From contig CAVQUB010000013.1 in NCBI GenBank assembly GCA_963716725.1, forward strand, positions 1-64,000: a stretch of DNA of 64,000 nucleotides, written 5' to 3'. This DNA comes from an uncultured delta proteobacterium (GTDB lineage: Bacteria; Myxococcota_A; Polyangia; Polyangiales; Polyangiaceae). Position numbers: made by a program. Shown in pieces: positions 24,001 to 27,000 of this stretch. Within the stretch, counting starts at the first letter, position 1, and each line of letters opens with the position of its first letter.

Positions 24001-27000
24001 ATGCCGCGATGGCCTCCGCCTTCCACAGCGACTGGGCGCGTTGGTCGGATTTCAGCGCGGTGTCCATGAAGAGCGTCGGACCGGAGGCGAGCAAGATGGA
24101 CGACGACGCCGAATCCCGGCGACTCTGCACAAAGGCCGCCGCGTGATCGATTCCGCCGAGCATGTCTTTCACGCAACCGCAGGGCTCGAGGGCGCCAGCC
24201 AGGTTGCTGACCACGAACACCCGCACCGTGGGCGTGCTGGGCGGGCTCGCGGGAGTCGCCGGCGCGCGCTTGCACGAGGCCGACGCGAGGCAGGTCGCCC
24301 CCGCGATCAGGACCTGGGCAAGGAGGTTCGGCACTCGCATCGTCGGCGATCTCTAGCGCAGAATCCGCCGGATTTCAGGCAGAGAAAGCCCGCCACGGCC
24401 TCGGGCACAAAGCTCGGTAGCCGCCCTGGCCCACCGGACGGCATAATGGACCGACGAGCATGAGCAGGGATACGAAAGAACCTGCCACGCCCTTCGGCCC
24501 CTTTGTGCTCGAGCGGCGCCTTGCCGTCGGCGGCAGTGCCGAGGTGTTCCTGGCGCGGCCCAAGACGGGGATCGTTCCAGCGCCCAAGTTGGTCGTCAAG
24601 CGCCTGCTGTCCGATCGTACCGAGGACCAGTTCGACGTGCTCAGCCACGAGGCCGAACTCAACCGCGCCATCACCCACGCCAACGTCGTGACCGTCTTCG
24701 GCGCCGGGATGGTCGGACGCGAACCCTACCTGGCCATGGAGTACGTCGAGGGCGTCGACCTGTATCGACTGCTTCGGCACGCCGAGACCGAGCAACGCAG
24801 GCTCCCCCTCGGCGTCGCCGTCTACATCACGCGCAGCATGGCGGCTGCCCTCGCCGCCGTGCACGCCGCCTGCAGCGCGGAAGGCCTCCCCCTCAAGATC
24901 GTGCACCGTGACGTGACACCGTCCAACGTCTATCTGTCGATCGACGGCGCCGCGAAGCTCGGGGACTTCGGCATCGCGCGGGTGAGTGAGCAGGTACGCC
25001 CCCCGTCGGAAGACGCGGGGCTCAAGGGCAAGTTTGGTTACCTCGCCCCCGAGCAGATCGCGGGCGAGCCTTTCGACCACCGCGCGGATCTTTTTGGGCT
25101 CGCCGCCATCTTGGGCGAAATGCTCCTCGGCGAGCGTCTGTTCCCGGGGAGCGGACAGCTCGCCGTGTTGCTCGCGATCCGCGACGCCAACATCGAGCTG
25201 CTCCGGGCCCAGGCGGCGCGGATGCCACCGGGGTTCTTCGCCATCTGTGAGCAGGCCCTGGCTCGCGCGCCGAACGACCGATTCCAGTCCGCCGACGAGC
25301 TGTCGACCGCTCTCGCCCCCTTCGACGATGCCTCGGCGCGGGGCCAGCTCGCGGAGTTGGTACGCGAAGCCTCGGACTCGAAGCAGATGGCGCGACAGAT
25401 CAAGGACAGCGTCGATCGCATGCGGGCCGTGGCGCACCGATTCACACCGAGCCCGGCTGCCCCGGAGTCCGTTCCGCCGATGGCGCAGTCGCGCCGGACC
25501 GCGCCGGCCGGCCCTCGCGCGAGGGCTGGGCTCCCAGCGCCGGACGCCTCGCCAGAATTGGAGATCGCGCAGGTGCGGCGCACGGACGGCCGTATGCTCG
25601 ACGGCATCGGCCTGCCGCGCCTGCTCGAGCTGGTCGCCACCGGCGAGCTGTTGGGCGACGACGAAGTCGCGTTCGGCAGCGGCGCTTTCGGGAAGATCCG
25701 CGATCACGGCGAGCTCGCGCGACACCTCTTGCCGTCAACCACCCAGACCACGCGCGACCTGCACGCTCCCGGCGCGCCGGACTACCGCGTGCTGCTCAGC
25801 GACACGCCGATGATGGAGGTGCTCGCGCAGATGCGACGTGAACGCGAGAGCGGAGCGTTGTTCGTCGAACGCGCCGACCGGACCGGCGCGCCTCAACGCA
25901 AGGAGCTCTACCTTCGGAGCGGGCGACTGCATCACGTCGCCTCCACCGACAGGAGTGAGCTGCTCGGCGAGTACTTGGTTCGGCGCCACGCGATCTCGCG
26001 CGAGCAACTCGACAGCGCTCTGGCTTCGCTGTCGCGCTTCGGCGGCCGCCTCGGCGACACGGTCGTGGGCTTGGGCTTTGTCCAGGCCATGGACGTGTTT
26101 CGCGCGATCCGCGATCAGGGCCGCGACCGCGTGGCCGCGCTTTGCGGCTGGAAGCGCGGGTCGGTGGTGTTCTATCGGGCGACGGACTCCGGCCGCGTCG
26201 AGTTCCCGCTGGACTTGGATCTGGCCAGCCCGATGATGGCCGGCTCCATCGTGCAGTCGGGCGGCGATCCGCGGGTGCTGCTGCCGGACTTCGAGGCGCC
26301 GCTCTCTCCCGGCCCGCGCCACTACGCCGCCTTCGACCCGGGAGAGATCGGAACTGCTCCGGTCAGCCTGCGCATGCTGCCCGCGCTGGCGACGGAACGC
26401 ATGACACTCGGCAAAGCAGTCCAACACGTCACGACGCCCCGACCCTCTGAGCGCAAAGTTGGCGACAAAGAAGCCTACGCGGCCCTGGTCGCCGCCAAGG
26501 TGCTGGGCTGGGTGGACTACTGAAGGTCTGTCGAAGAATGGCGGAGCGCAAGCCGGCGGAGCCGGCCCACACCCGTCGGCCCGTCGGGTGTCACGCAGCG
26601 CGTCGCGTGGGGTGGGGCCCCAACGAATTCACTTCGGTGGGGCGGGGAGGCGCGTGCCTCCCCGATGACAAAGTGAAAGAGCTGTCGAATTTTCGACAGC
26701 TCTTGAGTCAGGGGCCCGGGGCGAAGGGCAAGATCGTCTTGAGATCGTCGTCGTTGAACTTGAGCTGCAGGCCGATGAAGTAGTCCCGACGCCCTGCACT
26801 CAGGATGTCGTCGATGCCGGCGAGCAGCCACAGGCGGCTCACGAACTCGTAGCCCAGCGAGATGCGCCAGCGCGGCAATACGACCTCGCCGAAGCCGAAG
26901 AGATCCTGCCGTACCTCGAAGCGATCGTCGAAGAGCAAGGTGTCGAGGCCGACGCCGCCGGTCGACTCTTTGATCCCGAAGCGCCCGACGAAGGGGCCCA

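Follow-up and report, generated by a model that had tools for sequence, protein, structure and literature searches.

Among the closest described counterparts of the element reported here are the miniature elements (MITEs) ERIC/IRU, RUP, Correia, BOX and SPRITE. Like it, they are structured, 100-200 bp long, situated near gene 3' ends and nested in one another. In the relevant passages of PMC2229807, PMC10969869 and PMC3049150, their enrichment downstream of genes is read as tolerance, and BOX is reported often to provide a stop codon. As far as those passages go, their ends and donor family differ from those of the present element, in which the duplicated triplet is the stop codon itself.

The second point of comparison is the IS1182 family (NF033551; IS1272, in the part of PMC5678879 that concerns us). 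It shares with the elements described below a transposase with DUF772 and DDE_Tnp_1_6, terminal inverted repeats (TIRs) of ~16 bp and selective target choice. According to the same part of that source, IS1272 replaces an inverted repeat without duplication, whereas 3 bp are duplicated inside CTSAG in the subgroup found here. In contrast to members of the family, the element at our locus is a non-coding miniature. Orphan MITEs have a precedent in Haloquadratum, described in a section of PMC3119063.

We consider it likely that the locus is a nest of mobile DNA in three layers, comprising a MITE derived from IS1182, a 27-bp hairpin unit and an IS4 element of the IS50 type. Both outer layers belong, as variants, to kinds already known; the 27-bp unit is unexplained.

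A miniature element on the stop codon of a kinase gene

The window, a 64,000-nucleotide stretch of contig C13, belongs to a 7.9-Mb genome (84% complete) in which our own gene caller found 7058 genes (84% coding), with a content that points to a myxobacterium. The window carries a MITE flanked by two intact genes, one for a kinase and the other, convergent with it, of the MCE family (Table 1). An earlier note had described this MITE as one of 16 complete copies that duplicate TGA within CTGAG, form strong hairpins and leave the upstream gene whole, and our searches reproduced each of these observations. With a 188-bp query we recovered 16 copies, 13 of them intact and three split by an IS4 element (interruption of 1.47 kb each), measuring 141-180 bp between the duplicated triplets. 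A diverged 17th complete copy lies at C18:117077-117230, with half copies on C5 and C20. The element is short, non-coding and multi-copy and has terminal inverted repeats, as MITEs do. The left triplet is TGA in all 16 copies and the right triplet is TGA in 14 and CGA in two; both ends and the triplet flanks are kept throughout, and several copies are identical along their full length. Folding of the MITE strand gave z scores of -4.9 (RNA) and -5.8 (DNA).

Table 1. Coordinates of the MITE, its parts and neighbouring features in the window
Position	Strand	Feature
24460..26523	+	Host gene, Ser/Thr kinase, 687 aa, intact; ends in the TGA that forms the left target duplication
26521..26523	+	Left target-site duplication TGA (the stop codon), within target CTGAG
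26524..26703	+	MITE, 180 bp, non-coding, IS1182-type ends
26524..26539	+	Terminal inverted repeat, AGGT type; 14/16 identical to right end of the 1,589-bp IS1182 (L106)
26552..26566	+	Small GC hairpin, three-base loop; genus-wide pairwise identity 0.94
26568..26603	+	Type-A 27-bp unit, inserted; 36 bp here, with the 8-bp tandem and one extra base
26572..26587	+	8-bp tandem of the IS4 target duplication, probable IS4 excision footprint; common to 5/16 copies
26604..26664	+	Double-hairpin core; genus-wide pairwise identity 0.96
26678..26689	+	Internal inverted TIR copy; terminal hairpin with right TIR
26688..26703	-	Terminal inverted repeat, AGAG type; 16/16 identical to left end of the L106 IS1182
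26704..26706	+	Right target-site duplication TGA
26708..28450	-	Convergent MCE/MlaD-like gene, intact; stop one base past target
57876..63983	+	3.45-kb IS1182 + HNH-RuvA_C copy, GAG-type ends; left limit approximate
59001-62258		3.26-kb transposase + ATPase element interrupting the 3.45-kb IS1182 copy

Matches to the MITE occur in 12 of 41 related genomes. Near-complete copies are present in G002-G005, at sites other than those in G000, and in most of the 12 cases displayed the G000 orthologues of their flanking genes have no MITE behind the same stop. Conversely, the site orthologous to that in the window is MITE-free in all five same-genus genomes searched, as the earlier note had indicated. 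Its statement that the element is active genus-wide at different sites is borne out insofar as related copies lie elsewhere in same-genus genomes, but not at the level of segregating alleles: among the joints listed from contigs of four conspecific runs, two C21 sites are filled, with no empty MITE allele or circle.

Conservation is uneven along the element. Across the genus, the core has an identity of 0.96, compared with 0.69 for the left TIR, and the core is also found by itself, as a repeat, in three genera of the family outside this one (G007, G008 and G011). Together with the several MITE-bearing genomes that have no IS1182 transposase, this could mean that the hairpin core is the moving or selected unit, REP-like and either mobilised by an HUH enzyme or retained as an RNA element of the 3' UTR, with the IS1182-like ends as relics. 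We regard this as very improbable, given that every one of the 16 copies retains both ends and its triplet flanks and that the ends co-vary, with both altered together in the G003 MITE (TGTCC/GGACA). Two-sided changes affect only 3 of 37 predicted MITE base pairs (slight covariation), the element gave no terminator or Rfam match, and no Y1 transposase was found in G002, G004, G005 or G006. The hairpins may possibly affect the upstream mRNA, by analogy with ERIC, for which such an effect is reported in parts of PMC2229807 and PMC10969869.

Origin of the ends in the IS1182 family

Searching the genome with the MITE end motif yielded elements of 2.7 and 3.35 kb; their ends are similar, and they carry an HNH-RuvA_C gene and a transposase with an internal deletion. 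A public-genome scan with the transposase of these elements returned 79 loci. Eight of them (L106-L112 and L115), all in one uncultured deltaproteobacterial genome, hold an autonomous element of 1,589 bp. This element has the two asymmetric ends of the MITE (16/16 and 14/16 bases) and the same target and orientation, with CTCA/TCA flanks, and its transposase scores 283 bits on the IS1182 model NF033551 (cut-off 270). When metagenomes were scanned with the MITE's left end, 30 loci were returned, of which three have such a transposase, six are MITE copies and the remainder show neither; the metagenome loci L182 (1,594 bp) and L183 are of the MITE-like end type. In a quick tree of 31 of 33 transposase rows (L224 and L226 could not be aligned), on which we labelled the ends by hand, the transposases of elements with AG..TGTC ends form one clade with an SH-aLRT of 100. 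This clade includes the deleted 2.7- and 3.35-kb elements of the present genome and excludes its 3.45-kb element.

The length of the duplication can be read from the autonomous relatives. A credible pair of ends was found at 24 of 78 IS1182 loci, and the 3-bp flanks are identical at 23 of these 24 (TGA 14, TCA 8, CGA 1). These matched triplets, a CGA/CGA pair among them, fix the duplication at 3 bp, and duplications of 1 bp, 2 bp or none, suggested by the CGA right flanks, were rejected. Replacement of a stem-loop target in the manner of IS1272 was rejected as well, because a 3-bp duplication is present and empty sites fold no better than background. A CGAG right flank was read at 7 of 29 MITE loci elsewhere; with the CGA flanks of two copies here, this is commoner than faithful duplication predicts.

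Ends, target and 3-bp duplication shared with the L106 element, a transposase above the NF033551 cut-off and the AG..TGTC clade thus identify the MITE as a derivative of the IS1182 family. Read from sequence, this settles the family but not the enzyme behind the recent copies. The relatives define an IS1182 subgroup that spans several phyla, targets CTSAG and duplicates 3 bp. No MITE derived from IS1182 was found in the literature searched (outside ISfinder, TnPedia and most subscription journals), and the portion of a 2024 review available to us (PMC10969869) does not mention IS1182; the present element may be the first MITE linked to this family by identical ends. In outline, a DDE transposase acting in trans would bind the 16-bp ends of the MITE and insert it at CTGAG in fixed orientation. 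The central three bases would be duplicated, regenerating TGA and leaving the gene whole where the insertion falls on a stop.

The supply of that transposase is less clear-cut. Within the assembly (84% complete), the MITE-type clade is represented by internally deleted copies, with no intact transposase. G002, G003 and G004 have MITE copies, but searches with this transposase and for DUF772 matched nothing in them, and they contain at most short IS1182 fragments. A plasmid search returned only distant (<60%) IS1182. The earlier note had pointed to the 3.45-kb element as the possible autonomous partner, and this element is indeed of the right family. This element encodes the only full-length IS1182 transposase of the assembly, uses the same CTGAG/CTCAG target with a 3-bp duplication and shows a stop bias in the same orientation, so an intact 3.45-kb IS1182 + HNH element might have moved the recent MITE copies by cross-mobilisation. 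We think this unlikely. Its ends (GAG..TGTGAAA) match those of the MITE at 8-11 of 16 bases, compared with 14-16 of 16 for the other IS1182 clade, its transposase shares 37% identity with that of L106 and falls outside the L106 clade, and G002-G004 bear the MITE without the 3.45-kb element.

Stop-codon bias of the copies

The left TGA is a called stop in 14 of 16 MITE copies, compared with 1132 of 11167 CTGAG sites in the genome (Fisher p = 1.3e-12; own gene calls), and a fifteenth copy lies behind a 363-codon open frame. The enrichment that the earlier note had called stop-codon targeting is therefore real; its cause is a separate matter. One reading is true targeting of stop codons or gene ends: in this lineage, insertion would be directed to gene-end CTGAG either by the IS1182 transposase or by a host factor linked to the termination of translation or transcription. 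Several counts agree with it. Outside this genome, a long open frame precedes the left end at 25 of 29 MITE loci from other genomes and metagenomes (some redundant, two cut by contig ends and one mis-picked), and seven of eight copies of the 3.45-kb IS1182 also lie behind long open frames. Under a no-disruption model, 37% of the CTGAG sites that break no called gene are stops, and the MITE still exceeds this proportion (p = 5e-5), although our gene calls shorten genes at their starts and overlook others, so that the intergenic count is too high. An inverted TCA lies near 7 of 16 MITE sites and 149 of 1132 CTGAG stops, a post hoc comparison for which three definitions were tried.

We nevertheless judge targeting to be improbable. 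A frame of at least 100 codons precedes only 2 of 22 autonomous IS1182 elements of the subgroup in other hosts, compared with 41 of 323 background sites, and none of seven copies of the 1,589-bp element, with ends identical to those of the MITE, is at a long stop frame. Conversely, the same genome contains an unrelated IS630 family, flanked by CTAG, in which 16 of the 27 copies fall on called stops, compared with 390 of 2852 sites. This bias, too, is above the no-disruption expectation (p = 1e-4), and its difference from that of the MITE has a p value of 0.09. The bias in IS630 and its absence from the autonomous relatives argue against an enzyme that senses stops. Empty MITE sites fold no better than other CTGAG stops, on which ground hairpin targeting of the IS1272 type was rejected. 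A preference for convergent gene ends was also set aside: 6 of 16 copies are at such ends, compared with 283 of 1132 sites, which is not significant, and the next gene is convergent at 8 of 16 and 487 of 1132, respectively. No insertion sequence described as targeting stop codons was found in the literature searched (outside ISfinder and most subscription journals).

The simplest reading is that the stop bias probably reflects survival of harmless insertions, a filter at the level of the host. Copies would accumulate behind stops because the duplication rebuilds TGA and the gene stays whole, while insertions in genes or regulatory DNA are purged. A residual preference for stops may act besides this filter. 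Insertions that appear intragenic were seen at 2 of 27 IS630 sites and none of 16 MITE sites (sensitivity 0.83). As the IS630 control indicates, targeting can be mimicked when the duplication restores a stop codon, and comparable claims call for the same care.

The 27-bp unit and the nested IS4 element

The MITE of the window contains a further repeat, a 27-bp unit with about 180 copies of two types in the genome (type A, 63 matches and two in the reversed genome; type B, 118 and one). It is missing from the MITE copy at C6:120349, from two copies here in all and from most MITEs of the relatives, and is therefore a later insert in the MITE. We suggest that this unit, which is dispersed in the genome and duplicates no target bases, inserted into the core of the MITE in this lineage. 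It forms two mini-hairpins; the first 12 bases are a hairpin whose arms change together, and CGT(C) stands at the 3' junction. A left end lies within 400 bp for 52 of 178 right-end matches, and the other 126 are mostly chance matches (control 137). The 52 paired units measure 27 bp (32 cases), 54 bp (11), 135 bp (1), 324 bp (1), 35 bp (5), 62 bp (1) and 142 bp (1); lengths of 35 and 62 bp correspond to 27 or 54 bp with an 8-bp tandem, and the 142-bp unit carries an IS4 remnant. A BLAST search for paralogous empty sites, with a gap of 0 and no duplication, found them for 12 of the 63 type-A units and for 63 of the 118 type-B units; in the case of type B, many belong to arrays. Several genes contain a unit as nine additional in-frame codons. 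Multi-copy DNA accounts for 5% of the genome and is found no more than 60 bp away from 120 of the 181 units, a partly circular measure.

The innermost insertion is an IS4 element, present in seven full copies of 1,467 bp that run from CTCATG to CATGAG. Three of these are nested in the MITE at the fixed spot reported before. The earlier values of 1,469 bp for the element and 6 bp for its duplication need correction: the duplication is 8 bp long, perfect in five of seven copies as reported, retained at 7 of 8 bases in one copy and replaced by inverted flanks in another. The YREK signature of the transposase was read by eye from its residue spacing. The protein scores 297.7 bits on NF033590 (cut-off 160). 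The ends, length and 8-bp repeat of the element fit the IS50 subgroup in Table 1 of PMC2266710 (1350-1550 bp, 8-9-bp repeat), the part of that source used here, and on these sequence characters the nested element is assigned to the IS50 subgroup of the IS4 family.

The ~13-bp target motif assigned to this element proved to be the first hairpin of the separate 27-bp unit, which most MITEs of the relatives do not have. Each full IS4 copy adjoins the first hairpin of such a unit, and only 89 of 307 similar 10-mers of the genome lie in units. The element would enter the centre of this hairpin, with the 8-bp duplication. The three copies nested in the MITE belong to one SNP subfamily (3/5 compared with 0/11, p = 0.018) and have two orientations; one or two IS4 insertions followed by co-transposition are as likely as three insertions. 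Five MITE copies, including that of the window, carry the 8-bp word in tandem. At an HNH-gene site, the C4 copy holds IS4 between the 8-bp words and its C6 paralogue holds the tandem alone. The tandem is a probable footprint of IS4 excision: the element would have been cut out and the break sealed by end joining, leaving both 8-bp copies, and the MITE would then have spread the footprint to further sites. Ku is encoded in the genome. Slippage could also produce the tandem, since tandem partial repeats of the 27-bp unit arise without IS4 at L010.

Type A of the 27-bp unit occurs in six of seven genus genomes (70, 51, 28, 16, 10 and 3 copies), with none in G004 and 0-3 copies elsewhere, and type B in 7 of 41 genomes. 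Viral contigs gave 0 matches to type B, and our searches returned no long element with the ends of the unit. Three candidate mobilisers do not track the unit. A RAYT-like gene is flanked by other repeats and was found in only two of seven genus genomes. A Y1 enzyme is not supported, as no Y1 transposase was found in the four genomes named above. IS91-like Y2 genes often carry units, but are found in 30 of 41 genomes, including the unit-free G004. An IS200-like locus on C5 has only a 9-bp hairpin in common with the unit.

A bolder reading, which we offer tentatively and hold to be doubtful, is that the unit moves as an independent element and is smaller than any other for which we found a description. 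It would insert precisely and without duplication, keep the reading frame, nest in itself, spread genus-wide and serve as a dedicated landing pad for IS4. Its enzyme would not be a flanking RAYT, nor a TnpA that can be recognised as IS200/605, and would possibly be part of a new single-strand or RNA-templated pathway; a single-strand hairpin mechanism is our guess. A frame-keeping micro-insert that leaves no duplication, forms quantised arrays and has no known mobiliser is also convenient for study, as empty and filled sites in one genome ease testing.

Both inner layers can be set beside described systems. As in the IS50 subgroup, the IS4 element here has a length of 1,467 bp, the end consensus, an 8-bp repeat and YREK; it differs from the members covered in the part of PMC2266710 consulted by its strong preference for one repeat family. 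ISRm22, another IS4-family element, is found in REPs, with all copies at the axis of a small-repeat palindrome and some mismatched direct repeats from recombination (in part of PMC1525189). There the repeat is 6 bp, whereas the element here has an 8-bp repeat, targets a 27-bp unit within a MITE and leaves apparent excision footprints.

The 27-bp unit itself resembles REP/REPIN-RAYT systems, CGTC repeats, PATEs, SMRs and RPEs, which in the sections of PMC3733652, PMC3119063 and PMC10969869 devoted to them are small hairpin repeats without duplication, some in frame in genes and some without a known transposase. Like PATEs, it has no TIR, no duplication and near-terminal palindromes. By the marks of REP-RAYT systems it stands apart, with no GTAG- or CGTC-tagged single hairpin and no RAYT gene flanked by units; the REPs in the corresponding section of PMC3733652 have a 5' GTAG/CGTC tag with an 8-9-bp stem and a flanked RAYT gene. 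No 27-bp element of this kind was found in the literature searched (outside ISfinder and most subscription journals). Compared with all of these repeats, as those sections present them, the unit is distinguished by its fixed length of 27 bp, its two mini-hairpins and its exact multiples of 27 through nesting.

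Hairpin units and the double-hairpin core

The two-hairpin 27-bp units, types A and B, form one genome-wide family in the studied genome (G000). Their insertions lack a target duplication and keep the reading frame, and arrays contain up to 12 units. One IS4 copy (L081) is flanked on both sides by the same unit sequence in mutually inverted orientation, which suggests recombination or an assembly fold.

The double-hairpin core of the MITE also occurs as an independent repeat, present in multiple copies, in three further genera of the host's taxonomic family. In the related genome G011, the core repeat is preceded by TGA and a terminal hairpin unlike that of the MITE.

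Locations of the features described, by genome, contig and extracted locus (L)
Feature	Position	Locus
27-bp unit	Window 26568-26603	
27-bp unit	Window 58166-58192	
IS4 copy with inverted flanks	G000:C10:8851-10317	L081
Stand-alone double-hairpin core		L006, L007, L009, L017, L018, L020
IS1182-type ends around Y1 transposase gene	G000:C5 ~165400-166297	L202
MITE left-half fusion	G001:C5, L043:860-1150	L043
MITE-like halves	G000:C20:177690-186008	
Isolated hairpin	G002:C2, L031:749-787	L031
RAYT-like gene	G000:C5:499100-499744	L207
IS1182 with passenger gene	Window 57876-63983	Also L021-L023, L025
3.26-kb element	Window 59001-62258	

MITE halves, ends and possible chimeras

In L202, IS1182-type ends located 3' of a TGA stop flank an IS200-like Y1 transposase gene, which has its own hairpins; this locus is possibly a transporter or a chimera. 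In L043, a MITE left half is joined, at the core hairpin, to another fragment, which we take, from an unscored motif, to resemble a group II intron reverse transcriptase. On contig C20 of G000, a left and a right half resembling those of the MITE lie 8.3 kb apart and enclose RHS-like DNA, possibly as a composite or a split copy. An isolated, perfect 32-bp hairpin, built from two IS1182-type ends, directly adjoins the preceding TGA (L031).

Other mobile families

An IS630 family of variable length (0.6-1.7 kb) occupies 27 G000 sites with CTAG flanks (for example, L206), 16 of them at TAG stops. A RAYT-like gene flanked by short-tandem-repeat arrays occupies the same locus in G000 and in G003 (contig C22), with up to 10 homologous matches in G025.

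A passenger gene encoding HNH and RuvA C-terminal domains is carried by G000 IS1182 elements of two separate clades, the 3.45-kb versus the 2.7/3.35-kb elements. Nine near-identical copies were found of a 3.26-kb element, which contains a 27-bp-like unit and encodes an integrase-like transposase and an ATPase. Its best-matching model is IS481, at a score below the cut-off, and its gene layout is IS21-like.
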